Origin: Candidatus Acidiferrales bacterium
GTDB lineage: Bacteria; Acidobacteriota; Terriglobia; Acidiferrales; UBA7541
NCBI GenBank assembly: GCA_035308165.1
Contig: DATGHC010000021.1
Coordinates: forward strand, 769 to 64,768
Reading direction: 5' to 3'
DNA: 64,000 nucleotides
Below, piece after piece: positions 1 through 52,018 of the stretch. The position numbers were made by a program, and so were the translations under genes. The notes below the pieces were generated by a model. The model saw nothing but the letters and a program-made list of their open reading frames with translations. It did no database searches and was not told where the DNA came from. The stretch's first letter is position 1. The number at the start of each line of letters is the position of its first letter.

Positions 1-1906
1 TGCGAATGGCGAAGAAACTTTCCGCTGCGGGGGCTTGCGCGACGGGCCGGTAAATCACCGCTTCCGGAAGCGTGTTGGTCCAATCGTAAAGAACATCGCC
101 GGTGACGCCGACAATTTCCAGCCACGGAGCGGAAGAATCCGGGCGGCCAACTTTTATTCTTTTGCCGATCACGTTTTCGTGCGGCCAATAGCGTTCCGCA
201 AGTCTCTGACTGACGAGTGCCACAGGTTGGGACCCCTGACGGTCGTTGGTAGTGAACGCGCGGCCCGCTGCCATGGGTACGTGCATCGTGTTTGTGAAAT
301 CCGGAGAGATGGCCTGGGTCACGGCCCAGGGAGAATGCTCCAAGTCCGGCGAGGGCTTGCCTTCCATTTGAAAATAATCGAAAACCGTGCCGTTGTTGCT
401 GAGTGGAAATGTGGTGAGCGCGGTGACGGATTGCGCTCCGGGAATCGCCGCGAAACGGTCCAGTGTGTCCCGGTAAAATCGAGCGCGGGCGGGGTCATCG
501 GCGTAGCGCGTTGCCGGAAGATTTACAGCCAGAATCAGGACATGATCCGGATCGAATGGATCGCCCGAGTGCAGCAGTTCACGGAAACCGCCGACGAACA
601 AACTTGCCAGAACCAACAAAACCATGGCCACACAGATTTGCGCGATCACGAAAATACTGCGCAATCGCTGGCGCGATGAGCCGGATGTCGCGCCGCGGCC
701 GCTTTCCTTGAGGGCTTCATTCAAGTCCGGGCGCGAAGTTCCGAGCGCGGGCATCGATCCGGCCAGCACTCCGCTCACCAGCGCGATCGCCAGTGTGAAT
801 GCCAGGGCCTGGCTATCCAATCCGATCCTGTCCCAGCCGGGAATTAGCCGCGTGATATCTGCTGGCATGGACCGCAACAGTAAATTCAGGCAGAACCCGG
901 CGAACAACATGCTGGCCATCCCGCCGCTCAACGCCAGCACAACATTCTCAGCGAGCAACATCCGCACCACTCGCCAGCGGCTTGCTCCCAGCGCGGCGCG
1001 GACAGCAATTTCGCGCTTGCGCACGCTGCCCCGGGCCAGTTGCAAATTGGCGACGTTGGCGCAGACGATCAGGAGGACCACACCGACCATGGCAAGAAGG
1101 ATGACCATTGCACGGATCAGGATTGTGCCTTCAACAAATTCCGCAAGCGGCATTACATGTGTGCGGCGGTCTTTGTTGGTTGCAGGGTAGGCTTGCTCCA
1201 GTTGGCGGCCGATGGTGGACATTTCCGCTTCCGCTTGCGCCAGAGTGACTCCTGGCTTCATCCGTCCGAACACTTTCAAATCCCTTACCGCCCGGTCGGA
1301 TTTCTGTTGTGAAGTCAGCGCCAGTGGAGTCCAGATGTCAGTGGGCGCGGGGAAATTCAAATCGCCGGCCATGACTCCGATGATGGTGAAGGGCCGGCCA
1401 TCAAGATTTACAGACTGGCCGAGAATGTCAGAGGCGGCTCCAAAGCGGCGTTGCCACAAACCGTAGCTGATCAGAGCCACTTGATCGTGGCCCAACTGAT
1501 CTTCGCCTTCAACGAAGGTGCGGCCCAGCGAGGGTTTCACTTCCAATAAATCAAAAAAGTTCGCCGTGACTTGCGCACCGAACACTCGCTCCGGTTCCGC
1601 GGTCCCGGTTAAATTTACGTTGCTTTGTTGATACGCGGCCAGATCATCGAAGGAATGATTTTGTGCTTTCCAATCGAAATAATCGGCGGTGGCCGCGGGG
1701 GCCTTTTGCCCAATGGCCACCGCTGCAAGCCTGTTGAGATTGGAGAATGGCAAAGGCCGAATGAGAAAAGCGTTTGCAACGCTGAAGATGGCGGTGTTGG
1801 CGCCGATACCGAGAGCCAGCGTCAGGACGGCGATGGCCGTGAAACCGGGATTCTTGAACAGCATCCGAACGCCGAATCTCAGGTCTTGGAATACGCCTCG
1901 GAACAT
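1..1906 (-). CDS. ADOP-type (duplicated FtsX/MacB-like) ABC efflux permease, paralog P1, subtype A; 3' end cut by window edge
   Basis: Absent from the ORF track because there is no stop in the window. ATG on the complement at 1906-1904 gives [42 protein letters not shown], the same N-terminus as the six complete paralogs. Hand translation of 1021-1080 gives [18 protein letters not shown], of about 821-880 gives [19 protein letters not shown], and of 2-61 gives [20 protein letters not shown]. An in-frame stop would have produced a listed shorter ORF, and none is listed. Confidence 0.85.
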
Positions 1907-1987
1907 TGATCTTCACCCCCAGCGTCAGGTACGAAGAAACGGCGATTCAAGTTCAAATGGACGGGCCACTCCCCTCGAAAACATACG

Positions 1988-2016
1988 AATAGAAGAGCAA
2001 GTCTTCGGCCTGTCAA
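1988..2016 (-). promoter_or_regulatory. candidate sigma70-like promoter in front of P1
   Basis: Complement strand reads TTGACA (2016-2011), a 17-nt spacer, then TCTATT (1993-1988). It lies about 80 nt upstream of the P1 ATG, inside the 273-nt gap that follows the ATPase gene. This is a consensus match only. Confidence 0.25.
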
Positions 2017-2179
2017 TCTACCTGTATCTGATTGTATTAAAAGGCTTTAACCGTAGCAGAGTGACCGGCAAGTGGCGGTAATGCCCGATTATGGGACGGC
2101 CTGTCGCGAAAATGGATTCGTAGAATTGGCGCACCGAGCCAGCGATCCGCAACGCACTGCAAAGTGGCTCAGTGAAACC

Positions 2180-2881
2180 TCAGGCCGAGGTGGCCACCGG
2201 TCGAGTTTCGTCCACCACCCAACCGTCTTTCAAGTTAATGATTCGCTGGCCGTAGGTGGCGTTTCTCTCCGAGTGGGTAACCTGAATAATCGTGGTGCCG
2301 GCATCGTTCAAGCGCTTGAAGAGCTGCATGATTTCGTCGCCCTGGCCGGAATGGAGATTGCCGGTTGGTTCATCCGCAAGGATGAGTTTGGGGCTCATGA
2401 CCACCGCGCGCGCCACAGCGACAAGCTGTTGCTGGCCGCCGGAAAGTTGATTGGGGTAGAGATCTTTCTTCCCGACGATATTGAAGCGGTCGAGGATGTC
2501 GCAGACCAGGCTGGTGCGCTCGCCGCGCGGAACGTTTTTGTAAGAAAGGGGAATTTCGAGATTCTCGAAGACGGTGAGGTTGTCAATCAAGTGATAGCTC
2601 TGAAATACGAAGCCGATGTAGCGCTTGTGAAGCTCATTGCGTTGCTTGATGCTGAGCTTGTGGACGGGTTGTTCCACGAAGTTGTATTCGCCGGTCCATG
2701 CGCCGTCGAGCATGCCAATAATGCTCAGCAGCGTGGACTTGCCGGCGCCGGAAGGGCCCATGATGGTGACGAACTCGCCCGGATGGATGTCCAGGTTGAT
2801 GCGCCGCAGAACGAAAAATTTCCCCGCGGCAATGTCGTAAGACTTTTCAATATTGCGCAACTGAATGAGCGGCTCCGGCAT
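2180..2881 (-). CDS. ABC transporter ATP-binding protein (MacB/LolD-type, soluble), ATPase-1
   Basis: 233-aa ORF with an ATG start. Walker [10 protein letters not shown], signature LSGGQQQ, Walker [10 protein letters not shown]-loop VTHS. No TM domain. Confidence 0.95.
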
Positions 2882-2991
2882 AAACTCTCTCCTTGAACGT
2901 TCGCACTTTCGCCTGGGATCCCGGCGCTGAGGACGCTTTCACTCGGCCGACTATTCTACTCGTCTATTCTATTTTACTCGCTTCCGTGACT

Positions 2992-5412
2992 TTACTCACT
3001 TCTCAGGGCGATTACCGGGTCCACGCGCATGGCGCGCCGCGCGGGGAGGTAACAGGCAACCAGCGCGACCAAGGTCAGCAGAACCGGCACACTAAGATAC
3101 GTGAGGAGGTCGGTGGACGTCACCTGGAAAAGCAGCGATTGAATGAGTTGGCTCAGTGAATAAGCGCCGGCCAGACCGATGCCGATTCCCAAAAGCAGCA
3201 AGGCCATGCCGGTGCGGAGGACCAGGCGCATGACGTCACGAGGCTGAGCGCCCAAGGCGATCCGAATTCCGATTTCCTGAGTACGCTGGGTCACCATGTA
3301 GGACATAACGCCGTAGATGCCGACTGCGGCCAGCATGAGGGCGAGTCCGGCAAATGCGCTGAGCAGAAAAACAGAAAATCGTCGGGGAGCGACGTTGTCA
3401 TCCACGTAGGAAGATAATTCCCGCGTCTGCGATAGCGGCAGATCCGGGTCAATCGATTTCATGATTTCGCGGACTGCCGGAAAAATTGTGGCCGCGTCGC
3501 CGGGCGCGCGAATCACCAGGGTCCCGCCGGACCTCGGGCGCATGGCGTACGGCACAATCATTTCTTCGCGGGAGGGTTGGTCCACACCGTAATTCTTGAC
3601 GTGGGCGATCACTCCAACGACCGTTGACCATAGCGGTTTTTCCGCGGTTCCATCCACAGCGATACGCTTCCCCAGGGGATTTTCACCGGGCCATGCGATT
3701 TGCGCCATCAAGCTGTCCACGATGCAGACGCGCTCGGATTTTTCGTCATCGTACCTGGTAAAAAATCTTCCCTGCACCAGGTGGGCGCCCATGGCACGCA
3801 ATGCGTCGGGCGTCGCCACGGTAATGTCCACTGAGGGCATCTGTCCGGGATCTGTGATGCGTTTGCCTTCGATGGCGTAAGAAGTCTGGTTTCCGCCAAG
3901 CAGTGGGTTCATGAAACCCGCGGCCTGGACTCCGGGGACGGCGGAAATCTTGTCGACCAATTGTTGGGCGAATTGCCGCTGCTTGGCCAAGTCCTTGTAC
4001 GTCGAATCCGGCAAGGTTATTGCCGCGGTCAGTACGCCACTGGCGTCGAAACCTGTATCGGCAACCAGGACGCGATAGAGGCTCTTGATGGTGAGCCCCG
4101 CGCACACCAGCAGAATCATGGAGAAGGCTACTTCCGCGACGACCAGTGCGGCACGAACGCGCTTCCGCCCGGCACTGGCGCTTCCGCCGCGGCCACCCTC
4201 CTTCATGGACTCATGGACGTCGGTGCGGGAAACTTGCCAAGCAGGAAAGATGCCGAAGAAAAATCCGGTGAACAGCGACAAACCCAAAGTGTAAGCCAAC
4301 ACCAAACCATTTACCGAGACACCATCAATTCGAGGAACGTTGGAGGGGGCGGCCGAAGCGAGAGCGCCGGTCGCAAACCAGGCGATGCCCAAGCCCAACG
4401 TGCCGCCGGCGAGCGCCAGCAAAATACTCTCCGTCAACAATTGACGAACCAGCCGGGGGCGGCCCGCGCCGAGCGCGGTGCGAATGGCCATTTCGCGATG
4501 GCGCTCGGAAGCGCGCGCGAGCGTCAAGTTGGCTACGTTGGCGCAGGCAATCAGCAGGACAATTCCAACGGCGGCAAGCAAAAGCAGCAAGGACGGGCGG
4601 ACATCACCCACGATGGCGTTCAGCAGGGAGTCCACGGTCACGCTGTGCTCAGAGTTTGAGTTGGGGTATTGCTTGGCGAGCCGGGCGGCAATGGTCTTCA
4701 TTTCCGAGTTGGCTTGCGCCAGCGTCACGCCGGGCTTCAATCGTGCAATGGCGTAAATACCGGGATGCTCATCGCGATGACCCGGACCGCCCAGGGTGTC
4801 CTCATGGCGCCAGAGCGAACTGAAAAGGGAATAATCCCTCCAGGAACCGTGAAACTTGGTATTCGGAACAACTCCGATCACCGTGTAAATCTCTCCGTCC
4901 AAAATCAGTTTCTTGCCGAGGACGTTCGGATCCCGTGCAAATTTTCCGGCCCAGTATCCGTCGCTGAGCAATACCACCGGGGCCGCGCCCACTTTGTCGT
5001 CGTCTGGAGTGAGCCCGCGCCCGAGGACAGGCTGGACTCCCAGGGTTGGAAGGAGGTCCGCGGTGATTTGTCGCATGCGCAGACGCTCGGCCTCTCCTTG
5101 GCCGGTCAGAACCACGGGCTGAAAGTTATAAGGCGCCATGCTCTCAAACACAGTGTTCATGGAGCGCCAATCGTTGAAGTTGGCCATGGAGATACTCATG
5201 TCGGGAATCTGCGGGGAAGATTCCGAGAGAAAGACCAGGCGGTCGGGCTGCTTGTAAGGAAGCGGGCGAAGAAGCACGGCATCCACTACGCTGAAAATGG
5301 CGGTGTTGGCGCCGACGCCGAGAGCCAGTGTGAGTACGGCAATGAGGGTAAAGGCCGGCCTCTTCGCCAGGACCCTAAGACCGTATCGAACGTCCTGCAA
5401 AAATGAGTTCAA
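2992..5412 (-). CDS. ADOP-type duplicated FtsX permease, paralog P2, subtype B
   Basis: 806 aa. TTG start preceded by GAGGTG. N-terminus [41 protein letters not shown]. Two FtsX-like blocks ([33 protein letters not shown] and [26 protein letters not shown]), each after a large non-hydrophobic domain. C-terminus [19 protein letters not shown]. Confidence 0.93.
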
Positions 5413-5509
5413 ATGCCACCTCGTTTTACTGCCAGGAATGAGCGACGGGCTCGCTTCGTCGACCTATACAAGTAATAACGCACCCCAAGGGGTTGATGTT
5501 CCAGCATTT

Positions 5510-7957
5510 CTACTCGTGGCGGAGGGCGTTCAGCGGGTCAACACGCATGGCGCGGCGAGCGGGAATCCAGCAGGCGACAAAAGCAACTGCGACGAGGACC
5601 AATGAGACTTCGAGAAGGGTCAGCGGGTCCAGCGGGCCGATGCCAGTGAGGTAACTTCCGAGCAATGGCGCAAGCCAGAAGGACAGGGGAATGCCAATAG
5701 CTATACCGGCGGCAGTTAGGATCATGCCGCGCCCGACGGTGAGCCTCAGCACATTGCCCGGAAGAGCGCCCAGGGCCATACGAATTCCGATTTCGTGAGT
5801 GGATTCCGCGACGGAATAAGACATGACGCCGTAAACTCCCAGCGCGGAAAGCGCCAGTGCCAATACACCGAGTGCCGCCATCATCGCCGCGACATAGGCT
5901 ATGTTGATGGTGGATTCCCGGATGATTTGCTCCATCGGTTTTATGTCCATCAGAGGCTGTTCGGGATCCACGGAAAAGACCGCGGACCTGATCGCCGAAA
6001 CATAGGACTCCGGCCTGCCGGAAGTCCTCACCAGCAAAGACGAATAAGTGCGCGCAAATTGGTGATAAGGGCTGTAAATCATGAATCCCTTTTCAGGGTT
6101 CTGCCAATTCATGGTCACATCCGAAACGACACCAACGATCGTCAGCCAGGGAGGTCTGGTATCTTCCGCGGCGCCAAATTTCACGCGATGGCCAATCGGA
6201 TTGTCATTGGCCCAGTAGGCCCGGGCGAGACTGGCGCTGATCAAGGCGACCCGTTGGGCCCCGGCTGTGTCTTGATCCGTAAACTCACGGCCACGAATCA
6301 GCGGAATGCCCAGGAGTTGGAAATAATTCGCGCTCACACTTTCCGACGTGGCGTTCTGCGCATCCGCCGAATCGGTCCACGGATGGCCTTCAATGCTGAA
6401 AACATGCATTGAGTGGCCCACGGCATAAGGGAGGGAAGTTGTCGCGGCCGCACCTTGAATACCGGGAAGCGCCGAAATCCGGGTCAGTACCTGATCGAAG
6501 AATCCCGAAATCTGGTCGGGTTTGCTGTAGCGCTCGCCCGGAAGGTTAATTACCATGGTCAGCAGCGACTCCGGCCGAAGATTTCGATGAGCATTCGTTA
6601 AGTGATCGAAGGCGCGTACCAACAATCCACCGCCACCAAGAAGAATCACTGCAAGTGCAACTTGAAGGACCACCAGGAGGCTGCGCAGCTTTTGACGTAT
6701 TCGGCCGGCGGAATTCGACCTGCCGCCTTCTTTAAGCGTGTCGGTCAGGCCAAAGCGAGTTGTGACAATCGCGGGCAACAAGCCGGCCAGTAACCCGGCA
6801 ATAGCAGCCGCGCAGATGGCAAATGCCAGCGCCCTGAAATCCACGTGGACCTTGTCCCATCCGGCGATGGTCTTGCCGACGTCGGAAGGCATGTTGAGAA
6901 GGACAAGACGAACCGTCCATTGAGCGAAGATCAAACCGAGTGCCGCCCCGCCGAGGGCAATGAGTCCACTTTCCGTGAGCAATTGACGAATGACACGCCA
7001 GCGGCTGGCGCCCAGAGCTGAACGGATGGCGATTTCCTTCATGCGGCCCGATCCCCGCACAAATTGTAAGTTGGCAATATTCGCGCAGATGAGCAAAAGA
7101 ACGAATCCAACCGCGAGGAGAAGAAGGAGTGTGTAATTGTGCGCGTCGGTGCCGATGGAAAACAATCGCACGGGAGTCACCAACACGTGCCAGCCGCGCA
7201 GTGTAGAGGGATACGCGTCGCCCAGGCGGGATTCAATCCCATTGATTTCCGCGTTCGCGCTTCCCACAGAGACTCCGGAATTCAATTTGCCCATCGCGAA
7301 CATGGCGCGCCAGTCCCTGCGGGCCCAAAGGGGAGGATCGAGAGCCAGGGGCATCCAGAGATCGGCGGCGATGGGAAATCGAAATGATTCCGGCATTACG
7401 CCGATGACGGTAACCGGAGCGCCATCCACATGAATTGTTTGGCCGATTATTTGGGGATCGCCACCGAAGCGGCTGACCCACAGCGCGTGGCTTAAAACAA
7501 TTACCTTGTCTTCGCCGGGCTTATTTTCTTGGGGAAGAATAGTCCGCCCCAGAAGCGGCTGAACGCCGCAAATCGAAAAAAAGTCGGACATCACCCGATA
7601 TCCCTGGGCTTTTTCAGGAGTCCCTTCGCCCGTGAGACTCACCGAATCCCACATCCACAGTGTCATTGCACCCATGGACTTGGATTGCTGCTGCCAGTCG
7701 AGGAAATTGGCGGGTGCTACACCAATGTAATCATCACCCGACTGGCCCGGTGCCTGCTCTCCCAGAATAATCAGGCGCTCCGATTCTGGAATGGGGAGCG
7801 GTTTGAGAAGGAGCGCGTCGGCAACACTGAAGATGGCCGTGTTCGCGCCGATGCCCAAACCCAAAGCGAGCACGGCGATGGCCGTGAATGCCGGGGCTTT
7901 CAGCAAAGAGCGAAAGCCGTAGCGAATGTCGCGGGCCAGGGTTCCCATGGGCGGCAT
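5510..7957 (-). CDS. ADOP-type duplicated FtsX permease, paralog P3, subtype A
   Basis: 815 aa with the same architecture. N-terminus (MPP)[41 protein letters not shown], subtype motif [17 protein letters not shown]-terminus [18 protein letters not shown]. The second ATG at 7948 fits the paralog N-termini better. Confidence 0.93.
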
Positions 7958-8022
7958 ATTACTCTATGTGCCATCCCATAGGTAAGCTTTCGGGAGGTGG
8001 GAGGTTTATGGGCTTGAAAGGA

Positions 8023-10464: not shown

Positions 10465-10733
10465 TATTTCCTCCGGAATGGCCGCGATAACAAGCCGCCG
10501 GCGTCACTACCTGTAGTAACGCACAGTTGGAGGTAAATGTTCATTCGACGAAGCGCTTGATGTCGAGGCGGTAATCGGCGGACAGGTGAATGGATCTCGA
10601 TACTCCAAGAGGGAGGCAAGAGCCTGAATGATGGAATGGCGCAGACGGCGGGCGAAGAGAACCTTCGCTCCCGAAGCCGCCGGCACGACCGCCAAGTGCG
10701 TGCCGGCGAGACGCCAACCGAAACAACAAGGAG

Positions 10734-11456
<723 letters not shown>

Positions 11457-11643
11457 TTGGCGTTGCTCTCCTTGTTGTAATCCATCGAAACTCTTTGGTT
11501 ATCCACCCGTCCCGAGGAGCGTAGCTTATCAAGATATACCCTATATACGCAGGTCGGGAGCGCCCTGTTCCCACTTTTCGTACAATTTCATCTTCTCCCC
11601 CGGATCAAAATAAGCAGATGCCAGCCCTCAATTGGCCGTTGCC

Positions 11644-14052
11644 CTACTCATATCTCAGGGCAACCAGGGGGTCAACGCGCATAGCGCGGCGTGCTGGCAA
11701 GTAGGACGCCGCGAAGGCGACAATGGTTAGCATAAAGGTGACAACAATATAGGACGCAGGATCGGTGGGCGAGACCCCAAAGAGCAGGCCGGTCAATAAG
11801 CGCCCTAAACCCAATGCTGTCAACACGCCGATGGCCGCTCCGGCCAGGGCCAGTCCCATTCCGCGGGCCAAAACCATGCGCCGGATGTCGGCTGGTGCGG
11901 CTCCCAAGGCCATGCGGATGCCGATTTCGTGTGTGCGCTGGGTGACGGTGTAGGCGACCAAACCATATAGCCCTACGGCAGCCAGTACAAGAGCCATTGC
12001 GGCGAAAAGCCCAAGCAATTGGGCGGAGAAACGCGGCTGGGCCACCGAGGCCCCGATTACGTCGTCCATGGAGCGCACGGTGGATATGGCCTCGTCCTTA
12101 TCCGCGGCGCTTACGGCTTCACGTATTGATGCGGCAAGGAGCAAAGGATTGCCCGTCGCGCGGACAACAATGTTCATGTCCGGCGGAGGGTTTTGGGCCA
12201 GAGGTACGTACATCGCTGCGCGAGGATCTTCATCCAGGGTGCCGTGTTTTACGGTGGCGACGATTCCGACGATCTCACGGGTCTTGAAGGGATCGCCATC
12301 GATCTGAAGCAGCTGGCCCATCGGATTTTTTCCACCGAAAATATTGCGCGCGAACTGTTCGTTGACGACCACAACTCCCGGGGCGTGTTCTGAGTCGTTT
12401 TGATTCAGCCACCTGCCGGAGAGCAAGGCCACGCCCAATGCTTTCTGAAGTCCTGGAGTGACCTGGCGAAAATCGGCGTCATCAAATTGATTGGGTGGAT
12501 AGATGCGACCCACGACGTGAAAAGGATTGTCGCCAAACTGTCCGCTGAGCGGAAGCTCTGAGATTGATCCAGCGGCTTCGACTCCCGGCGTGGCGCTCAG
12601 CCGTTGTTCGAGGTCGCGATAGAACGTGAGTTTTTGTTCCCGCGTACGCGATGAGTTGGCTATGTGGAGGGTCGCGGTCAAAACGTGCTCGGACCGGAAT
12701 CCGGGGTTCACGTGGATGAGCCGCCAGAAACTCTTTATCAAAAGACCGCCGCTCAAAAGCAACGCAAGAGAAAGCGCGACTTCACCGATTACAAGAGCGC
12801 TGCCCAGGTAGTTGCGACCACCGCGACCCAAACCGCGCCCACTCTCTCTGAGAGTTTCTTCCATGCGCCGGGAGGCGCGGGAGAAACGGATTGCCGGCCC
12901 GAGCCCGAAGAGGATTCCTGAAAACAGCGACACCCCCGCGGTGAACGCGAGAACACCGAGATTTACCTGGATCTCATCGACGCGGGGCAGGCTGGCGGGC
13001 GCCAAAGCCCGCAAAGCAGCGACGCCCCAAACGGCAAACAAGAAACCGAAAATTCCGCCGGTTAAAGAGAGGACCAAACTCTCCGTCAACATTTGCCGGG
13101 CAATTCTCCAGCGGCCCGCGCCGAGCGCGGTGCGGATGGCGAATTCCTTGCGACGAGCCGTTGCGCGCGCCAAAGAAAGATTGGCAACATTTGAGCAGGC
13201 GATGAGAAGCAGGAAGGTCACGGCGCCGAGCAAGAGCCAGAGCGCCGTGCGAGTGCTCCCGACTACAAACTCGCTGAGAGGCATTACACGCAGCGACCAT
13301 CCCTCATTGGTATTCGGGTTTTGAGCCGCGATCTGCGCCGCGATGTTGTCCAATTCCGAGCGGGCGGCTTCCAGGCTGAGACCCGGCTTCATTCTGGCGA
13401 TGGCCGCGAGGAAATGGGCCTGGCGGATATTCATACCGGAATTGTCCATCGGCAGCGGCTGCCAAACCTCGGCGAGGGAAAGCGAAGGGAGATCCACGGG
13501 CAAGACACCGACAATCGTCACGCGCTTGCCATCCAGATCCATACTCTGGCCAATCACGGCGGGATCGCCGCCGAAATCGCGCTGCCAAATGCCGTGGCCC
13601 AGAATGGCGACCTGTGGGTCAAATTCCTTTTCGTCGGCAGCGACGAAGCTTCTGCCCAATGCTGGAGGGATGGCCAAAGCATCAAAAAAATTCCAGGAGA
13701 CGATTTGCGTGCGGACCTGCTCCGGATTTTCGCGGCCAGTCAGGTTGGAAACCCCATCCAGATAACCGATGGCGGCAAATTGCTGGAAGTTTTTGGCACG
13801 GGCACGGTAATCTTCAAAATCGGGCGGGGAAACGGCGGCCTGGTCGCTCAACGCAAACTTACCGTTGGCATAAATCAATTGCTCTTGAGCGGGAAAAGGG
13901 AGAGGGCGCAGCAACACTGAATTTACGACGCTGAAGATGGCGGTGTTGGCGCCAATGCCGAGAGCGAGCGTCATCACGGCGAGGACGGAGAAGGTAGGCC
14001 GCCTGGCCATGGTGCGCAGAGCGTAGCGAACATCCTGGAACATTGTTCCCAT
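11644..14052 (-). CDS. ADOP-type duplicated FtsX permease, paralog P5, subtype B
   Basis: 802 aa. [41 protein letters not shown]. Shares IRTALGAGR and SLPRVDEIQVNLGVLAFTAG-type motifs with P2. C-terminus [19 protein letters not shown]. Confidence 0.93.
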   Translation of the reverse strand: MGTMFQDVRYALRTMARRPTFSVLAVMTLALGIGANTAIFSVVNSVLLRPLPFPAQEQLIYANGKFALSDQAAVSPPDFEDYRARAKNFQQFAAIGYLDGVSNLTGRENPEQVRTQIVSWNFFDALAIPPALGRSFVAADEKEFDPQVAILGHGIWQRDFGGDPAVIGQSMDLDGKRVTIVGVLPVDLPSLSLAEVWQPLPMDNSGMNIRQAHFLAAIARMKPGLSLEAARSELDNIAAQIAAQNPNTNEGWSLRVMPLSEFVVGSTRTALWLLLGAVTFLLLIACSNVANLSLARATARRKEFAIRTALGAGRWRIARQMLTESLVLSLTGGIFGFLFAVWGVAALRALAPASLPRVDEIQVNLGVLAFTAGVSLFSGILFGLGPAIRFSRASRRMEETLRESGRGLGRGGRNYLGSALVIGEVALSLALLLSGGLLIKSFWRLIHVNPGFRSEHVLTATLHIANSSRTREQKLTFYRDLEQRLSATPGVEAAGSISELPLSGQFGDNPFHVVGRIYPPNQFDDADFRQVTPGLQKALGVALLSGRWLNQNDSEHAPGVVVVNEQFARNIFGGKNPMGQLLQIDGDPFKTREIVGIVATVKHGTLDEDPRAAMYVPLAQNPPPDMNIVVRATGNPLLLAASIREAVSAADKDEAISTVRSMDDVIGASVAQPRFSAQLLGLFAAMALVLAAVGLYGLVAYTVTQRTHEIGIRMALGAAPADIRRMVLARGMGLALAGAAIGVLTALGLGRLLTGLLFGVSPTDPASYIVVTFMLTIVAFAASYLPARRAMRVDPLVALRYE

Positions 14053-14089
14053 TCATGGCCTCAACAAGAAATCCCTAGGAAATTCACGC

Positions 14090-16567
14090 TCATTCGTACC
14101 GCAGCGCAATCATAGGGTCGACGCGCATGGCGCGCAGCGCGGGGAGCCACCAGGCGATGGCCGCGACCGCCAGAAGGATGGCGGCAGTGGCCATGAAACC
14201 GAGGGCATCGAAGCTATCGATCCCATAGAGCAGGCTGCTGACCGTGCGAGTGAGAAAAATGGAAGCCACCAGACCGGCAACTGTACCGGTGAAAACCATA
14301 GCCATGCCATTGCCCATAACTATGCGAAGGATGTTTCCGCGCTGAGCGCCGAGCGCCATGCGGATACCGATCTCCTGCGTCCGCTGGCCAACGGCATAGG
14401 ACATGACGCCGTAAGTTCCGATGGCGGCAAGAAGCAGCGCCAGCAGGGCAAAAGCGGCGAGCAATTCGGCACCGAATCGAGCGCTGGTGAGGACATTGCT
14501 CATCAGGGATGGGAGCGTCCGGACTTGTCCTCCGCGGATGGTCAACCGAGGGTCTACGGCTTGAATGGCACTGAGGATTGTGGAAGCTGCGGAATCCGGA
14601 TCCCCTTTGGTGTGAACAAAGAGCACTGCACCGGGAGCAAACTGCTGCTTGAGCGAAAGGTAGCAAACCGGTTGGGGATCTTCGCCAAGGGTTAGGAATT
14701 TAACAGTGCGCACTTCGCCCACGACCTGCACATTCCAATCCGAGCCATTCGCTGCGTGGAAGAAAAGCGTTTTGCCGATGGGACTCGTGCCCGGCCACAT
14801 TTGATCCGCCAGGGCCTGATTCACGACCACGACTTTTGCGGATTGAGCATCGTCATGGTCGGTGAAATCACGGCCGGCCACCATGGCAATCCCGGCACCC
14901 GAAAAATATCCTGGAAGGACAGCCACTTCAGGAGTCAGCTTGCCGAGCGCGGGGTTGTTCTTGTCCACGCCTTCCGGAAACATGTTGGCACGAATGCTTT
15001 GATTGAACGGCCTGGTGTCAGAAACGCCGGCGGCCACGACCATGGGCAGGGATCGCACACGCTCCGCGGCGTCATGATAAAACTGCTCCGACTGCGGCTG
15101 GGTATAGTGCTGATCCCCGGGATTCAGGAAAACTAGAAGCTCGTTCTTACTTTCAAATCCGGTGTCCATTCTCTGGGCATTCCAAAGACTGTGAACGAAC
15201 AGGCCCGCACCCATCAGCGCAATTAGGGAAAATGCGATTTGCGAGGCCACCAGTATCCCGCGCAAGCCATACCAGCGGCCGCTGGTTGAGGGAGAGTCCG
15301 TGCGGTCCTTGAGAGCGGAGATCTGTTCCACGCGGGAAGTCTGCCACGCCGGTATCAAACCAAAAATCATGGTAGCGAAAACGGAGATCCCCAAGGTGTA
15401 AAGGAGCACGCGGACGTCCGTGGAAGTATCCAGCCCCTGCGGACGGCCTCCGGGTAACAGCGTCCAGATCAGGTCTTTGGTCCAGACAGCGAAGAGAGTT
15501 CCGAGTGCAGCGGAAATCAAGGCCAGGAGCATGCTCTCCGTGAGCAACTGGCGCAGGAGCCGGGCGCGAGAGGCACCCATGGAGAGCCGGATGGCCACTT
15601 CGCGGCGGCGCAGTGCCGCACGGGCAAGAAGCAGGTTGGCGACGTTGCCGCAGGCGATGAGCAACACCAATCCGACAACGAACATCATCAGCGTGCCGGC
15701 CAGAACAAACATTCCATGTTGTGCGGGGGGCACGTTGGTTTGATCGAAAGGCATCAAAGAAACATTACGACCGGAGTTCGTGTCGGGGTAGGCCTGACCG
15801 AGATGATCGCCCAGGGCTTGCACGGAACCCTGGGCCTGTTCGAGCGAGACGCCGGGCTTCAGGCGCGCCACCATAAACAACATCCGATATGCGCGGCGCG
15901 GATACCAGCTCTTAATGGGGCCGTTGACAATCTGGTCATGCATGGCCATGGGAACCCAAAGGTCCATGGTTCCGATGGCTCCAAGTTGGCGGAAATTTTC
16001 CGGTGCAATTCCCACGACCGCGAAATCCTGGTTATTCAGGCGAATGGTTTTCCCCACGATGTTGGGGTCGCCGCCAAATGTTTCGGTCCAGAGAGAGTGG
16101 CTCAGCACGACAACGGGTTTTGCGCCGGCGGTCAGGTCCTCATCGGGAAGGAACCAGCGGCCCATCGCCGGGCGTACGCCGAGAATGTCAAAGAAATCCC
16201 AATTCACGAGTTGCGTGGCGACGCCCACGGTCCGGCCATTGATATCCAACGGGTCGCCGGTGAACTGGAACATGGAAAGGCCGGTGAAGACGTCGTTCTT
16301 TTCGCGATAGTCCAAGGCATTGGGATAAGACGAAGGGAGGTAATTGGCCAGCGTTCCGCTTTTCGGTTGATTGGTGGAGTAAACGATGACCAGCCGCCCG
16401 GGATCTTTCACGGGGAAGGGCTGCAGGAAAACGGCTTTCACCAGAGTGAAGATGGTGGTGTTGGCGCCGATGCCCAGCGTCAAGGAAAGAACGGCGACGG
16501 CCGTGAACCCGGGATTTTTCAGCAGCATGCGAAAGCTGTATTTCAAATCCTGCCAAAGTTTTTCCAT
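14090..16567 (-). CDS. ADOP-type duplicated FtsX permease, paralog P6, subtype C
   Basis: The track ORF 14090-16690 overlaps the 3' end of P7. The internal ATG at 16567 gives [45 protein letters not shown], which aligns with the other N-termini. C-terminus [18 protein letters not shown]. Confidence 0.9.
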
Positions 16568-16626
16568 GGATTTGCCCTGACCTTCCTTTCCATCCGACTC
16601 AGGGGCCCATTGCAAAAAGCGGGAAA

Positions 16627-19089
16627 TTACTCGTAACGCAAAGCGATAATCGGGTCCACGCGCATGGCGCGTCGCGCGGGCAACCAGCAAGCGGCCAGGG
16701 CGACGATCACCAGTATCGCGGAGGTTGCCAGGAAACTCGGAAAATCAATGGCGCCGATGCCGAACAGCAGGCTCTTCATGCTGATGGTGAGCACAGTCGA
16801 AAGTGCGAGACCGGCGGCGATGCCCACAAGAACCATAGTCATGCCGTTGCCCAGAATGAGCCGCAGAACGTCGCCCCGCTGCGCACCCATGGCCAGGCGG
16901 ATGCCAATCTCCTGCGTGCGCTGGTTCACGGAGTAAGACATGACGCCGTAAGTGCCGATGGCGGCGAGGAGCAGCGCCAGCAAACCAAAGGTACCCAGAA
17001 GTTCCGCACCGACGCGCGGCGCCACCAGAGATAAATCGAGCAATTCGGCGACGGTCCTGACATTGCGGATCTTGAGCGAGGGATCGAGAGAATCTACCGT
17101 GGAGCGGATGCTAGTCAGCGCCGCGTGTGGATCGCCGTTGGTGCGGACATAAAAGACAGCATTGGGGCTGTAGTGCTGTTTGAGCGGAAAATAAACGATG
17201 GCTTGCGGAGGCTCACCGAGTGTCAGGTACTTGACGGTCTTGACCACGCCGACGACTTCGACGTCCCAGGTTTGCAGGGCAAAATGCAGGTGCTTGCCAA
17301 GGGGATTCTGGCCAGCCCAGGTGCGGTCCACAAAAGCCTGATTGACGATGGCGACCATGTGGGATTGGGCATCGTCGTGGTAGTCGAAATCGCGCCCACT
17401 CAGCTGAGAAATTCCTGTCGCGCTGAAAAAACCGGGGGAGACTGAAATTGTTGGAGTCAATTTGCCATTGGTAAGATCATTCTGGTCAACGCCCTCAGGA
17501 AACGTAGTGCGCTGGAAGCTGCCGGCGAACGGCGCATTGTCGGAAACGGCCGCGCCGGCGACCATGGGGAGCGCGGATACGCGGTCAATGGCGTCGCGGT
17601 AATACTGCTCCGCCCGGCCCTGGGGATACTGCTGCGAGCCTGGATTGAGGCCCATGATGATCACGTTCTTGGTGTTGAAACCAGGATCCATCTGCTGCGC
17701 GTTCTTCAAACTGTGGATGAACAATCCCGCGCCGACCAAGGCGATCAGAGAAAGTGAAACTTGCGCCATCACCAGGATCCCGCGGAGGCTGTACCAGTGC
17801 GTCGCTCCGCCGGGTACATCGGTGCGGTCGCGGAGAGCGTTCATCTGGCTGGGATTTGAGGCTTGCAGGGCGGGAGCCAAGCCAAATAAGACGGAAGCGA
17901 AGATAGCGACACCGAAGGCAAAGAAGAGCACACGAAGGTCGATCGAGGTATCCAGATTACCAAGGGCCCCTGCCGGGACCAGGCCGATGACCAGATTCTT
18001 CGCCCATTCCGCCGTGAGAACTCCCAATCCACCCGAGACGAGACCCAGAAGGACGCTTTCGGTAAGCAACTGGCGGACGAGGCGGAGGCGAGAGGCCCCC
18101 AATGACAATCGAACGGCCATTTCGCGGCGGCGCTGGGTGGCGCGGGTGAGCATCAAATTGGCCACGTTGGCGCATGCAATCAATAAGACCAATCCCACGA
18201 CGACCATCATCAACAGGCCGGCCAGGGCGAAAACGCCGCGCTGATTGGGAGGAATGTTGGTTTCACTGATGGGGACCAGGTCGTTGTTCCGTCCGGTGTT
18301 GTCTTTCGGATAGATTTTCGCGAGCTGGTCGCCGAGCGAATGCATGGAAGTTTGCGCCGTGGTCAAAGACACATTGGGCTTCAGCCTGGCCACGGCGAAT
18401 GCAATTCTTGCCCCGCGTTCGTTGAACCAATCCTTCACTACTCCAGTGAGGATCTGGTCATGCATCATCATGGGAACCCAAAAATCAGGGCTTCCCAGAA
18501 CACCGACATCATGGAATTCGGGAGGAGCGATACCGATGACCGAGTATTGCTGGTGGTTGAGCAGAATGTTCTGTCCGATAATCTTTGGATCCTTGCCGAG
18601 ATCTGTATTCCATTTGGCGTAACTGACAATGACGACGGGGTGCGCGCCGGGGGTTTGGTCTTCATCGGCGGCAAATGTGCGCCCTTGTGTGATTTTCACT
18701 CCGAGCACATCAAACAGATTGTAATTCACCAGTTCGACGAAGGCGGGAGAGTCCTTGCCGGAGATGGTCAGAGTGGTTCCCGTGGGAATGACCACGGCCA
18801 TTCCGGAAAAGACATCGTTCATGTCGCGATAGTCGCGGCCATTTAGATAGGTTAAGGGAAGGAACTGCTGCAAAGCACTGCCGCGGCTCTGCTGCGTTGA
18901 GTAGACGGAGACGACACGGCTGGGATCTTCCACCGGGACAGATTGCAGGAAGATGGCCTTAACCAGAGTGAAGATGGTGGTGTTGGCGCCGATGCCCAGA
19001 GTGAGCGAAAGAACGGCAACCGCGGTGAAACCCGGCTTCTTGGCGAGGGTTCGCACGGCATAGCGGATGTCTTGCCCAAGTGTGCCCAT
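16627..19089 (-). CDS. ADOP-type duplicated FtsX permease, paralog P7, subtype C
   Basis: The track ORF starts at GTG 19092. The adjacent ATG at 19089 follows AAGGGGG and gives [46 protein letters not shown]7 is the closest relative of P6, about three quarters identical in the N-terminal 60 aa by eye. Confidence 0.93.
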
Positions 19090-19188
19090 CACACCCCCTT
19101 ATGGACTTGGCTTGCCGGCGCCCAAGGCTGAACGGGAGGCAAGGCCTTGAAGTTTTTGACGGCGCGGCCAGCCATCGGTCAACATCAC

Positions 19189-20484
19189 TTACTTGCTTTG
19201 TATCTGGATACGGGGCGAGAACTGGATCCTTTCCGCAGCGTCGAAGTTGGCCATATCGGAAAGGATTACGGCATCGCCTTCCTTCAAACCATCAAGCACT
19301 TCGATGGTGTTGACAGACCCGCGGCCCAGTTTCACCTGGACACGCACACCCTCGGTGCCGTCATTGAAAACCTTGAATAGGCCTACGGTGCTATTGGGTT
19401 CGCCGTGCACGGGCCGGGAGACGTACAACACGTTGGTCATATTCTGGATTTCGATGGTGCCGTCGACGCTTTGGTCGGGGCGCGCGCCGGCGGGAAGAGG
19501 CTCATCAAAACTGATGTCCACTGCGACGGTTCCGTTGATGGCCGCGGCGTCTTCACGGGTAACGTGGCCTTTGACGAGTCCGTTGCGAGTGTCGACGATG
19601 GCCTTCTGCAACATTTGAACATCCTTGGCCTGTGTTTCAGGAACCTGTACGGTGGCTTTCAGCTTGAGTGGGCTTGCTACGCGCGCGAGATTGGTGCCGA
19701 GAGTGACTTGCTGGCCCTCGGCAACGTCGGTGCCTACGGCGGTGCAGACGCATTGGACAACGCCGGCAATTCCGGCACGCACGTGCAGGGCTTCGAGTTG
19801 CTTCTGCTTCAATGCATAAAGGCCTTTCGCGGAATCCACCTGAGCTTTGGAGGCATCGAGCTGGGCCTTGGCGGAATCTCCGGCAATGGCAAGACCGTCC
19901 TGAGCGAACTTGACCTGGACTTCGTAGTGGTCCATCAGAACTTTATCGAGATCGGCATTGGACTTTGGGCCCACTCCAGCCTCGAACTTTGCTGTGTCGA
20001 GCTTATAGTTCATCACGGCCTGCTGATACTGACTATCCACAGCGGCGGCAGCGCTCTTCTGAGTCATGAGATTGCTCTGAACCTGCACAGTCAAGCTGTC
20101 ATAGTTTGCTTGCGCTTGTTTGTAAGCAAATTCTGCGGTCAGGGCATCGTTCTGGAGTTGTGTGTCGCTGAGTTCGATGATGATACTGTCGGGCTTTACG
20201 ATGGCGCCGGAGCGGAGCAGAATTTTTTCGACTTTGGCGCTCGATTGCGCGGGAATCCAGCGAATGTCTTCGGGAACCAGAGTACCCAGCCCGCGGACTT
20301 CGATATCCATGTTGCCGCGAGTGACCACGCCGGCATAGGCGATGGAACCATCCATGGTGGGTGCCGCGGGGCGCAAACGGGACAAGCCCAGCGTTACGCC
20401 GCCGAGAACTATGATGACTAAGACTCCATAGAGAATCCGGCGAATGCGCCGCTTACGAGATTGATCGGGCCTGGCTATGTCCAT
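19189..20484 (-). CDS. HlyD/MacA-type periplasmic adaptor (membrane fusion protein)
   Basis: 431 aa. N-terminal anchor ILYGVLVIIVLGGVTLGL, a long Ala/Gln-rich coiled-coil segment, and a beta-rich C-terminal half. It is the first gene of the permease array. Confidence 0.85.
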   Translation of the reverse strand: MDIARPDQSRKRRIRRILYGVLVIIVLGGVTLGLSRLRPAAPTMDGSIAYAGVVTRGNMDIEVRGLGTLVPEDIRWIPAQSSAKVEKILLRSGAIVKPDSIIIELSDTQLQNDALTAEFAYKQAQANYDSLTVQVQSNLMTQKSAAAAVDSQYQQAVMNYKLDTAKFEAGVGPKSNADLDKVLMDHYEVQVKFAQDGLAIAGDSAKAQLDASKAQVDSAKGLYALKQKQLEALHVRAGIAGVVQCVCTAVGTDVAEGQQVTLGTNLARVASPLKLKATVQVPETQAKDVQMLQKAIVDTRNGLVKGHVTREDAAAINGTVAVDISFDEPLPAGARPDQSVDGTIEIQNMTNVLYVSRPVHGEPNSTVGLFKVFNDGTEGVRVQVKLGRGSVNTIEVLDGLKEGDAVILSDMANFDAAERIQFSPRIQIQSK

Positions 20485-20768
20485 TGGGAATATCCTTTAA
20501 CAAATGTGATTTCTGTCCCCATAGAGCGCAAGTGTCGGGCCTTCCGAGGGGAATCTAACGTGCTGAATATACTACGGTTAGAGGCGGTGCGCACCCGATT
20601 TGTGGGGTGCGCTGGCCGCTTGTGGGAATGCCCGTCGCAAAACCGGACACACCCAAAATGGCCGAGATGGACGCCGAAAATGGACGTGCGACAAATTGAC
20701 TTCGATTGGAGCGGCGAATAGCATGGACAATTCAGCAGAGCGGGTGGAAATGGTCCGTGCGGGCTTCG

Positions 20769-41595: not shown

Positions 41596-41934
41596 CTATT
41601 TTTCGCGCGGCGCGGGTGCGGATATGGACGGGCCCCAATCGGAGGGGCTGGGCGTCCAGTGGCGCGTGAATACGTCGGTGAGTGTGAAAGTGAGCAGCAA
41701 CCCCAGCCAGAAAAACGCCGCGACAATAACAATCTTGGTCAGCCGCGAGCTGTACTTCACATGCATGAATATCAGAATCACCAGCAGCATCTTGGTCACG
41801 GCGATGACCAGGGCTACGACTGTGTTCATCGCGCCCAAATTGATGAAGGCCACGCCCGCTGTGAGCGCCGTCAGACACAGCAGCGCCAAAAATACGGCCA
41901 CGTAGGTTTTCACCGGCACGATATGCTGCGACAT
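41596..41934 (-). CDS. cytochrome c oxidase subunit IV (small caa3-type subunit)
   Basis: 112 aa starting [21 protein letters not shown], with three hydrophobic helices. The ATG overlaps the subunit III stop (TGATG). The 212-aa track ORF is an upstream extension running through subunit III. Confidence 0.75.
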   Translation of the reverse strand: MSQHIVPVKTYVAVFLALLCLTALTAGVAFINLGAMNTVVALVIAVTKMLLVILIFMHVKYSSRLTKIVIVAAFFWLGLLLTFTLTDVFTRHWTPSPSDWGPSISAPAPREK

Positions 41935-42641
41935 CAGTACCGCCCTCCGATCAAGTAAAGCAACGGGAACAGGAAAATCCAAACGATATCCACGAAGTGC
42001 CAGTAAAGCCCGCTGATTTCGATGGGCGCGTAGTAATCGGCGGAAAACCGGCCGCGCCTGGCTTGGATTACGAGCACGGTCATGATTCCCAGGCCAATAA
42101 TCATGTGCAGAGCGTGCAGCGCGGTCATGAAGAAATAAAAACAGAAAAACAGCTGGAGGTTGGGAAGCGTCACTCCAGCCGGGAGGGCCTCCGTGGGAGC
42201 GAAGCGCAGACCGGGCACCAGAAAGTCGTCCCACTTGTGGACGTATTCATGGGCTTTGATTCCGAGAAACGTCGCGCCGAACACCATGGTGAGCAGCAGG
42301 AAGGCGATCAACGCTTTCCGCTTGCCCGTCTGCGCGGAATGGACAGCGAGCGCCATGGTGAGACTGCTGGCGATCAAAACTGCCGTGTTCGTGGTGCCCA
42401 GCCTGATGTCCAGCAGGCGGCTGCCGAATTCAAACGCCGGAAGGTAGAGCCCGCGATAAATCGCATACGCAGCGAATAGCCCGCCGAAAAACATGATCTC
42501 GGTGACTAGAAAAATCCACATGCCCAGGGTCCCAGCTTCATGCTGCTGGTCGGCATCCACAAATTGATGCGCAACGTGTTGCGCAGCATGCTGCGACGAC
42601 CCTTGTCCGTGCGTGACTGCGGTAACTTCAGCCACCGGCAT
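41934..42641 (-). CDS. cytochrome c oxidase subunit III
   Basis: [18 protein letters not shown] and [21 protein letters not shown] 42641 gives a 14-nt overlap with subunit I. The track start at 42680 is also possible. Confidence 0.9.
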
Positions 42642-44280: not shown

Positions 44281-45263
44281 TGCGCTTTCCTTTCCTGTGC
44301 GCCCAAGGACTTCACATAGGCCATCAACTGCAAGATTTGCTCCTCATTTAATTGCCCCTGAAAGGTGGGCATCACCGGAGCGAACTCCGCAAGGGGCATG
44401 GAATTTGGATTGGTGATGGCCTGCCGGATGAAAGATTCGTCCACCAAAAGCGTGCGGCCATCCTTCAGCGGTTGTTGAGTGCCGAATTTGCCGGTCAGCG
44501 ATGGCCCTTTCCCGCTGTTGTCATTCTTGTGGCAGGTGTTGCATCCGTATTGCGCAAAGAGCCGCTCGCCCGCCTGGGCCATGGACTCGCCCTTGGAGCC
44601 GCCCGCAATCCAGATGGCGTAGTCCGCCGGAGTCATTACGTAAACCCAGCCAATCATTCCGGAATGCTGTGCGCCGCAATACTGGGCGCAGAAAAAGTGG
44701 AATTTGCCCGTTTCCGTGGCCTGAAACCAGATACTCGTATACCGCCCTGGCAAAACATCCTTTTTCACGCGGAAGGCCGGAACGTAAAAATCGTGGATGA
44801 CGTCTTCGGAGGTCATAGTGAGCTTCACCGGCACGCCGATGGGAACATGCAGCTCATTGATCTCCCGCGGACCCTCGGGATGCTGGAGATGCCACATCCA
44901 CTGTTTCCCGACCACGAAAATCTCCATGGAGGCGTTGGGCGGGCGTGAATTCGCAAAATACAAACTTGAACTCCACACAAAGATGATTGCGCATAGTCCC
45001 GTGGGAACCAGGGTCCAGGTCAATTCGAGTGAGAGGTGCGTTTTCGTTTCAGCGGGCTGCTCGTTTTCGGAACGCCGGCGGTACTTGATTGCAAAATAAA
45101 GAATCGCCGAAAAAATGATGAAGGTAAAAAAGAGTGTGATGCCGGTAAGAAAAAAATGGAGCTTGTCCACACCTTCGGCGATGGTCGAGCCGGGCTCGGG
45201 GCGGATGGGAATCCCCAGCCAGGTCTGCATGGCCAACACGGAAATTATGCCTATGTTGAACAT
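44277..45263 (-). CDS. cytochrome c oxidase subunit II with fused C-terminal cytochrome c (caa3 type)
   Basis: CuA site HDFYVP...[13 protein letters not shown]-terminal heme c site CNTCH. Confidence 0.95.
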
Positions 45264-52017: not shown

Positions 52018-52018
52018 T

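Follow-up and report, generated by a model that had tools for sequence, protein, structure and literature searches.

The subject of this analysis is an array of acidobacterial duplicated orphan permease (ADOP) genes at one end of a 64,000-nucleotide (nt) stretch of the genome of a soil acidobacterium, Candidatus Acidiferrales (contig DATGHC010000021.1, positions 769 to 64,768), which we refer to as the window. The array also contains two genes for ATP-binding cassette (ABC) ATPases and one for a MacA-like periplasmic adaptor, and the comparisons described below make it most likely that these permeases are not without a motor but all work with a single conserved one. A listing of open reading frames (ORFs) with their translations gave ten co-directional minus-strand genes in the order adaptor, P7, P6, P5, ATPase-2, P4, P3, P2, ATPase-1, P1, exactly as claimed in an earlier reading of this DNA made without database searches (the sequence-only reading). 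The adaptor (19189..20484, 431 amino acids, aa) is followed by the permeases P7 (16627..19092, 821 aa), P6 (14090..16567, 825 aa from its Met in a frame that is open to 16690) and P5 (11644..14052, 802 aa), and then by ATPase-2 (10734..11456, 240 aa), a canonical MacB/LolD-type ABC ATPase. Next come P4 (8023..10464, 813 aa), P3 (5510..7957, an 815-aa open frame called as 812 aa in relatives) and P2 (2992..5412, 806 aa), a second MacB/LolD-type ABC ATPase, ATPase-1 (2180..2881, 233 aa), and finally P1 (<1-1906), of which the N-terminal 635 aa are visible before the gene runs off the window edge.

The intergenic gaps measure 37-273 bp, and the two widest (273 and 269 bp) come after the ATPase genes. 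We considered a substrate or peptide gene in these gaps and rejected it, as they hold only unsupported TTG- or GTG-initiated frames of 22-62 aa, in agreement with the sequence-only reading, which had seen no obvious gene of this kind. Four of the products are present at NCBI as proteins of a Candidatus Acidoferrales metagenome-assembled genome (MAG), namely HLW98034 (ATPase-1), HLW98035 (P2), HLW98038 (ATPase-2) and HLW98042 (adaptor); their annotation goes no further than the labels ATP-binding protein, ABC transporter permease or HlyD family adaptor. The spacing of their accessions fits nine consecutive genes from ATPase-1 through the adaptor, which speaks against an extra gene between those of the array.

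All seven permeases, the truncated P1 included, score above the curated TIGR03434 (ADOP) cut-off of 622.3 bits, with values of 706-968 bits (P1 705.7, P2 967.6, P3 911.4, P5 951, P6 881.7 and P7 890.7), and the family assignment made for all seven from the letters alone was thus borne out by the hidden Markov model (HMM) search. Each full-length permease contains two MacB_PCD and two FtsX (PF02687) stretches, and the internal duplication is recognizable by BLAST between N- and C-terminal halves with E-values down to 6e-10. By hydropathy, P2 contains two extracytoplasmic domains of ~230 aa each alongside eight hydrophobic segments, and its AlphaFold2 (AF2) model shows eight long helices, with residues 393-413 forming a low-confidence, disordered cytoplasmic linker. 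Pfam, hydropathy and AF2 therefore agree with the description of these proteins as chains of ~800 aa with two FtsX bundles, each preceded by a large extracytoplasmic domain. The shared N- and C-terminal motifs that had been described are present, with small deviations in P3 (RDIRY), P6 (QDLKY and PALRAM) and P4 (PARRAT). Identity among the paralogues is 32-56% (51% between P4 and P3, 56% between P7 and P6), so the array is neither a recent repeat nor an assembly artefact. In a fold search with P2, YbbP (9GE6/9GE7) was the best full-length match, followed by Spr0695, MacB, LolC/E and BceB; HrtB was also matched. Sequence matches of the permeases were to MacB, Spr0695 and YtrF.

An alignment of 295 ADOPs shows where the family is constrained. 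The transmembrane (TM) segments and the coupling segments are well conserved (0.61-0.71), unlike the extracytoplasmic domains (0.43-0.44). The TM2-TM3 loops carry conserved motifs, R.rE.A.R.AlGA in the N-half and one with an initial qRT in the C-half, which we take for putative coupling helices. These motifs form a single class over the 295 proteins, and each half keeps its own motif.

The adaptor model (predicted local distance difference test score, pLDDT, 86.8) has an N-terminal TM helix (residues 8-36) and an alpha-hairpin with helices 108-168 and 174-231 of ~60 residues each, and its best fold matches are MacA in the MacAB-TolC complex (9QGY_G, 1.4e-21; 5NIK_D, 5.8e-19). Its sequence matches HlyD_3 and, at 82.6 bits, RND_mfp, slightly below the cut-off of 94.9, and it has at least 8000 homologues at E <= 1e-20.

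The sequence-only reading had treated the locus as an exception that supplies partners missing elsewhere, on the premise that ADOP genes essentially never lie beside ABC ATPase genes. To our knowledge, this is also the reason that the TIGRFAM text gives for the name 'orphan', which does not describe this locus, with two ATPase genes inside the array. Both the premise and the exception fell when other genomes were compared. In an ADOP-centred scan (one genome per species; the best-scoring 80 loci, 38-51% identical to P2), in which ORFs were compared with the window proteins, 22 of the 80 loci carried an ATPase 63-80% identical to ATPase-1 or ATPase-2 in a co-directional ADOP array, and 15 carried an adaptor 40-48% identical to that of the window. 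Where full 10-kb flanks were available, ATPases were present in 9/24 loci, all nine being arrays of at least four ADOPs, as opposed to none of the 13 with one to three ADOPs. Counted by gene, loci with an ATPase account for 98 of the 209 full-length ADOPs. The survey that the sequence-only reading had proposed, of ATPase or HlyD genes within about two genes of an ADOP, returned 5/24 central ADOPs among the full-flank loci. The 'orphan' status is thus a property of the original three-genome sample and not of the HMM-defined family.

A second, ATPase-2-centred scan of metagenomes (80 loci, 74-84% identity) showed the same arrangement from the other side. Nearly all of its loci read adaptor, ADOP(s), ATPase-2, ADOP(s), ATPase-1, ADOP(s); ADOPs were found in 26/30 loci with at least 8 kb of downstream sequence, and the adaptor in 39/53 loci with upstream sequence. 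Loci with this linkage are spread over Terriglobia, Blastocatellia/Pyrinomonadales, Chloracidobacterium, Solibacter and Opitutaceae. In all, the adaptor and both ATPases recur together in more than 60 independent loci, and a chance adjacency of the ATPases is ruled out by this conserved synteny. Judged by gene order across genomes, permeases, ATPases and adaptor clearly belong together as functional partners, as had been claimed for this locus. An ATPase- and adaptor-linked ADOP array is therefore common, which the sequence-only reading had named as one way in which it could fail; for an earlier description of such arrays we found no evidence, apart from a figure-level mention in Psychroflexus torquis that is taken up below.

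Sixteen operons are visible end to end, from adaptor through regulator. Every one of them has the adaptor, ATPase-2 and a regulator, and 15/16 have ATPase-1 as well, while the ADOPs in cis number 0-4, with six operons having none; over all loci there are between 0 and 9. Conservation amounts to 65-84% for the ATPases as against 35-50% for the permeases. Beyond the proteins of the array, clustering of the other ORFs gave only three recurrent partners, a response regulator, a histidine kinase and, less often, a Toastrack-like protein. As far as gene content and sequence motifs tell, the conserved core is the adaptor, ATPase-2, ATPase-1, a sigma-54 response regulator and a predicted intramembrane-sensing histidine kinase, placed behind a -24/-12 promoter. 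The window locus is an ordinary member of this widespread and apparently undescribed system. The earlier idea that the permeases are interchangeable modules on a common engine fits this combination of a fixed core with 0-4 ADOPs in cis.

Four long-flank loci have an adaptor and ATPase(s) and no permease. Such 'motor-only' loci, numbered L129, L140, L153 and L126 in our scans (also L094, L097, L136 and L138), are without a permease within up to 10 kb and carry the adaptor, the regulator, the kinase and either both ATPases or ATPase-2 alone, in a mirror image of the orphan permeases.

The counterpart of these loci is a second class of ADOP loci, with solo or first-in-line ADOPs. The in-frame N-terminal domain perm_prefix_1 (NF038403) is found in 12/46 solo or first ADOPs (26%) versus 12/271 array-internal ones (4%), and prefix-bearing ADOPs are preceded by a TIGR03433 PadR regulator in L027, L042, L053, L060, L072, L073, L076 and others. 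None of the seven window permeases has perm_prefix_1 or PadR. We accordingly rejected a PadR regulator as a component of the window array, TIGR03433 and perm_prefix_1 being marks of the different, solo class. The PadR-linked solo ADOPs are the true 'orphans' and may borrow the motor in trans.

The closest relatives show what lies past the window edge. Two assemblies, L163 and L164, are identical to the window and both end ~730-750 nt beyond position 1; the break falls just downstream of P1, within the first ~200 nt of the next paralogue gene of the array. A common break in two independent assemblies suggests that it is repeat-induced, and the array lengths in MAGs are therefore probably underestimated. 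P1 continues in both assemblies and in L161, a contig of 119.8 kb that is 94% identical to the window and in which P1 is 806 aa long. Past P1, L161 has two further ADOPs of 809 and 820 aa, a Toastrack/DUF4097 protein of 340 aa and a sigma-54-dependent response regulator. Its full locus thus comprises nine ADOPs in three groups of three, split by ATPase-2 and ATPase-1. No regulator gene was found within the window itself, but the earlier statement that the array has none was an artefact of the window edge, which cuts the array short. We considered whether this layout arose by duplication of a triplet module, as three copies of [P, P, P, ATPase], and rejected it: the tree of the nine paralogues, with groups (P7,P6), (P4,P3,P1) and a loose (P5,P2,P-1), ignores triplet position, so the pattern is not a simple module triplication.

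Upstream, the adaptor is flanked by a divergent trpC-trpF-trpB-trpA-aroF-tyrA block. Two relatives with adaptors 65% and 70% identical to that of the window lie at the orthologous trp-adjacent site and have one versus three ADOPs between adaptor and ATPase-2, and hence the permease content turns over, again as expected of interchangeable permeases. In these two syntenic loci, L165 (15033-17468) and L166 (14183-15295), the arrays differ in other ways too: in one of them an ADOP is split into pieces of 571 and 200 aa, a likely pseudogene, and in the other a T2SSE-type ATPase gene is inserted between ADOPs. The remainder of the window is housekeeping sequence, with polA, a cytochrome oxidase cluster and alternative complex III-like genes, and no second ADOP was found in it outside the array. 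The respiratory cluster (41934-54062, minus strand) encodes cytochrome oxidase subunits I, II and III, an SCO1 homologue and alternative complex III-like proteins, among them an NrfD-type membrane protein, a multihaem cytochrome c and a 1026-aa Fe-S protein. A 645-aa protein (26617-28554, minus strand) has a FecR domain as its sole match, and L165 encodes a 695-aa protein with a weak FecR-domain match at a comparable position past the trp/aro/tyr genes.

A caution about taxonomic labels arises from the deposited sequences. Identical ATPases are found under Candidatus Acidoferrales (Acidobacteriota) and Candidatus Limnocylindrales (Chloroflexota) MAGs, and near-identical fragments of a permease and of the adaptor, each falling into the same 90% cluster, likewise appear under both labels. 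Such dual-phylum deposits suggest cross-contamination during binning, and the non-acidobacterial labels on the ADOP loci L020 and L076 should therefore be treated with caution.

We turn now to the regulation of these operons. The NtrC-type (sigma-54) response regulator was identified in 34 loci with 61-82% identity and the histidine kinase in 22 loci with 44-60% identity. Using a GG-N10-GC motif that resembles TGGCAC-N5-TTGC and a threshold of at least 7/10 matches, we found a -24/-12 promoter-like motif upstream of the adaptor start in 47/55 loci, mostly 13-31 nt away, compared with 17% of random 130-nt windows (p about 3e-28). In the window this motif is aGGCcCgacacTTGC (20528..20542, minus strand). 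A generic scan for promoters and terminators was uninformative and we discarded it, as promoter-like sites occurred at chance level and terminator-like matches lay mostly inside genes. In two Opitutaceae loci (L026 1-1275 and L039 1-2268), the regulator and kinase lie upstream of the adaptor, with the -24/-12 motif kept at 9/10. In L036, L046, L048, L052, L091 and L106, ORFs within the arrays or next to them align with the sigma-54 regulator over ~125-145 residues only, with 51-65% identity, and may be regulator genes that have been truncated or rearranged.

In each of the 20 full-length kinase orthologues, a loop of just 8-10 residues connects two N-terminal TM helices; HAMP/PAS, HisKA and HATPase domains follow, and none of the proteins has a periplasmic sensor domain. 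By its predicted topology, the kinase is of intramembrane-sensing design, like BceS or LiaS. The Toastrack protein (DUF4097, with a weak LiaG match and an N-terminal hydrophobic segment; L161 18430-19452, L082 7156-8166 and L097 5931-6980) precedes the sigma-54 regulator in L161 and about 10 other loci, directly after the last gene of the array (an ADOP or ATPase-1), which recalls LiaF/LiaG beside LiaSR. Since Bce modules couple a type VII ABC transporter to an intramembrane-sensing kinase, these features, and the position of kinase and regulator within the invariant core, would also fit an array whose ADOPs are mainly ligand or damage co-receptors for the kinase, as BceB is for BceS. The many paralogues would then provide many inputs, ATP hydrolysis would report the substrate load and export would be secondary. 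However, the adaptor is equally invariant, and the ~60-residue helices of its MacA-type hairpin are a duct-docking element, which argues for real export. Furthermore, the regulator is NtrC-type rather than OmpR-type, ADOPs with their two extracytoplasmic domains and eight TM helices are unlike BceB, and sensing and export are not mutually exclusive. We regard a mainly sensory array as quite improbable and retain export by a shared motor as the preferred reading.

The two ATPases of that motor match PF00005, with DarD, the MacB nucleotide-binding domain and LolD as their best NCBIfam models, and they are 44% identical to each other. Their nearest solved relatives are type VII nucleotide-binding domains, namely Spr0694, MJ0796, MacB, YbbA and LolD. 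They fall into two orthologue groups, of 47 members for ATPase-1 (63-84% identity, in ADOP arrays) and 98 for ATPase-2 (64-84%, nearly always placed between adaptor and ADOPs), which have 66 invariant positions in common and 22 fixed differences. Eight of these 22 lie within the segment comprising the Q-loop and the coupling groove (p = 0.004). Moreover, the ATPase-1 orthologues have replaced Arg with Leu after LSGGQQQ (LSGGQQQ-L) and Asp with His in the D-loop (NL-H-S), two hallmark positions of the dimer interface at which MacB, MJ0796 and Spr0694 retain Arg and Asp. In all 46 loci with both ATPases, ATPase-2 is upstream of ATPase-1, and the two are directly adjacent in 16. The fixed changes at the predicted dimer interface of ATPase-1 hint at an ATPase-1:ATPase-2 heterodimer. 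According to the sequence-only reading, each permease would bind two copies of a shared ATPase. That detail of two identical copies may be wrong, given two separate orthologue groups that co-occur in 15/16 complete operons in a fixed order.

These findings are best accommodated by a MacAB-like type VII ABC system for export or extraction at the cell envelope, with one ATPase pair and one adaptor serving many fused 8-TM permeases under sigma-54 and two-component control, a reading that we consider probable. The conserved motor would consist of one MacA-type adaptor and the two soluble ATPases, ATPase-2 and ATPase-1, and the variable, fused, pseudo-dimeric 8-TM ADOPs, seven in the window and nine in its relative, would be its alternative membrane modules. 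Each ADOP would dock two nucleotide-binding domains through two coupling helices, one per half, and the docked pair would probably be one ATPase-1 and one ATPase-2; we infer a 1:1:1 stoichiometry for the assembly. The two divergent extracytoplasmic domains may select the substrate in the periplasm or the outer leaflet, and ATP-driven mechanotransmission would then push it through the channel of the adaptor and across the outer membrane, via a duct whose gene lies elsewhere. The substrates are probably envelope-active or amphipathic compounds. The operon would be transcribed from the sigma-54 promoter ahead of the adaptor and controlled by the NtrC-type regulator and the intramembrane-sensing kinase, which would be encoded at its far end, past the window edge. 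Judging from the Bce and Lia modules, the kinase probably responds to the activity of the transporter or to stress on the envelope, and not to a free ligand. ADOPs elsewhere in the genome, often PadR-linked and with an N-terminal prefix domain, may use the same motor in trans.

Several points weigh against this reading. The links between permeases, ATPases and adaptor are all genomic, and our locus samples are the best-scoring 80 of each scan rather than a random selection. The model of P2, built from 7 sequences, is of moderate quality only (pLDDT 74, predicted template-modelling score 0.59). In the window itself, the -24/-12 motif contains two mismatches, and its distance of 43 nt to the adaptor ATG exceeds that in most relatives. 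The Walker A motif, Q-loop, signature motif, Walker B Glu and H-loop His are present in both ATPases, either of which could therefore act as a homodimer, and the asymmetric permeases of LolCDE and YbbAP are able to use one ATPase twice. A complete operon, L140, carries ATPase-2 alone, and so ATPase-1 is not strictly required in cis. Finally, no TolC-like outer-membrane factor was found in the 64-kb window, as the sequence-only reading had already noted for the array, nor among the recurrent neighbours in 166 loci; tripartite export therefore needs an unlinked duct, or else the adaptor does something different. In E. coli, tolC is unlinked to macAB, and a gene in cis is thus not required.

The last of these points would also fit adaptor-independent extractors. 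ADOP-ATPase complexes would in that case act like LolCDE or YbbAP and pull lipids, lipoproteins or hydrophobic compounds from the inner membrane for periplasmic partners, while the adaptor would serve one permease only or have a different function. The identity of the best full-length fold match of P2, YbbP, agrees with this, as does the ratio of one adaptor gene to up to nine permeases. However, the adaptor opens the operon more consistently than any other gene and is kept even where no permease is present in cis, and no gene for a periplasmic hydrolase or chaperone recurs among the loci. Hence, we hold such an extraction mechanism to be highly improbable.

The completeness of the catalytic motifs in both ATPases and the existence of L140, together with the two widest gaps after the ATPase genes, could also mean that the array is made of several pumps placed end to end, in which each ATPase is a homodimer serving the permeases of its own segment (adaptor-P7-P6-P5-ATPase-2, P4-P3-P2-ATPase-1, and P1 onwards). 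Two local elements point in this direction. A strong hairpin, CGCCGGCACG with an 11-nt loop and CGTGCCGGCG (10678..10708, minus strand), starts 26 nt past the ATPase-2 stop; it has a 10-bp perfect stem and no U-tract, its region has z = -2.2, and a second small hairpin comes next. A similar element, GGCACGCGCAC, lies directly past ATPase-2 in L069, L128, L133, L142 and L150. The other element is a candidate GG-N10-GC motif, aGGCCgaagacTTGC (1997..2011, minus strand), which is found 90 nt upstream of the P1 start and closely resembles the -24/-12-like motif before the adaptor; we treat it as a lead only. However, -24/-12 motifs are not enriched after the ATPase genes, occurring after ATPase-1 in 3/17 loci and after ATPase-2 in 15/61 loci versus 31% of controls. 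We thus rejected the idea that sigma-54 promoters generally follow the ATPase genes within the array; the match at 10691-10705 is a part of the hairpin. The hairpin itself could be an attenuator, or an element for mRNA processing or stabilization that sets expression ratios.

The wider comparison also speaks against independent segments. Across the loci, permeases occur before, between or after the ATPases in every combination, the ATPases being immediate neighbours in 16 of them as described above, and six complete operons have both ATPases and no permease at all. The coupling-helix motifs of the 295 ADOPs form one class and not two, and the nine paralogues do not cluster by triplet position. 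We therefore consider segment-specific pumps unlikely and return to the shared motor.

The shared-motor reading can be carried further, if only tentatively. The five-gene core may be the sole, universal motor and sensor for every ADOP of a genome, including dozens of scattered PadR-linked copies, with ATPase-1 and ATPase-2 forming an obligate heterodimer that has one non-canonical ATP site and places each ATPase on one half of the permease. This extension seems to us possible but doubtful. We know of no earlier heteromeric pair of nucleotide-binding domains in the type VII ABC superfamily. If the extension were true, it would describe a plug-in transporter whose substrate range evolves by permease swaps on a fixed engine.

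The significance of these results lies in the abundance of the family. ADOPs are among the largest paralogous families of Acidobacteriota and occur also in Verrucomicrobiota and Bacteroidota, and yet their function and energy source have been blank since they were named 'orphan'. A cassette of adaptor, ATPase pair and regulator that travels with ADOP arrays, and sometimes alone, gives a testable answer to the question of what powers them, and the ATPase linkage corrects a family description that still shapes annotation. The model proposed here also suggests a route by which abundant soil bacteria may vary their envelope export or defence, in that the module facing the substrate is multiplied while the motor stays the same.

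In the literature, we found no description of ADOPs together with an ATPase, an adaptor and a sigma-54 two-component system, ADOPs being mentioned only in passing. One MAG reportedly has 102 ADOP copies (PMC10564751). A related case is genomic island 43 of Psychroflexus torquis, in which about ten clustered ADOP paralogues occur with other transporter genes, including ATP-binding ones, and are highly translated (PMC3914696). This cluster differs from ours in belonging to a genomic island of a member of the Bacteroidota, and the partnership with ATPase and adaptor, the ATPase classes and the regulators were outside the analysis of that study. A review of type VII topologies describes 4-TM and 10-TM forms and no direct 8-TM fusion (PMC5985334).

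Among well-characterized systems, LolCDE has two different 4-TM units, LolC and LolE, with two nucleotide-binding domains, and an ADOP resembles a fused LolC-LolE pair. In contrast to the arrays described here, LolD is a single gene product used twice, there is no adaptor, the substrate is a dedicated class, lipoproteins, and there is one copy per genome. The Bce (BceAB-BceRS) and LiaFSR modules of Firmicutes have an intramembrane-sensing kinase, associated in Bce with a type VII ABC transporter. Related ADOP operons share with them a kinase that has no extracytoplasmic sensor domain and, sometimes, a Toastrack (LiaF/LiaG-like) protein. They differ in their diderm host, in the adaptor, in a regulator that is NtrC-type and sigma-54-dependent instead of OmpR-type, in permeases with 8 TM helices and two extracytoplasmic domains as opposed to 10 and one, and in having many permeases per kinase. 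The darobactin exporter DarBCD (NF038007/NF038008/NF038010) is similar in its separate ATPase, its ~780-aa double-FtsX permease and its periplasmic adaptor, and DarD is the top NCBIfam match of both window ATPases. However, the proteins of the window score far under the equivalog cut-offs (ATPases 250 and 264 versus 375, permeases 33-36 versus 700, adaptor 27.8 versus 450), and the array comprises many permeases and comes without a biosynthetic cluster.

The structures of E. coli YbbAP (PDB 9GE6-9GE8) show one fused permease binding two copies of a separately encoded ATPase via two coupling helices (PMC12646458). YbbP is, like an ADOP, a fused, pseudo-symmetric double-FtsX permease with two periplasmic domains. 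It has 10 TM helices, two of which are linkers, whereas an ADOP has 8 and a cytoplasmic linker, and the YbbAP(-TesA) system comprises one ATPase gene, one permease and the hydrolase TesA as partner, without an adaptor. MacAB-TolC of E. coli and A. actinomycetemcomitans has in common with the ADOP system the 4-TM FtsX-fold unit, whose TM1 and TM2 are separated by a large periplasmic domain, a nucleotide-binding domain of the same clade and an adaptor that combines an N-terminal TM helix with a long hairpin. Unlike in MacAB-TolC, the ATPases are here separate polypeptides of two orthologue groups, the permease is a single-chain fusion with 8 TM helices and two different periplasmic domains, and up to nine alternative permeases are present per adaptor, under sigma-54 and two-component regulation.

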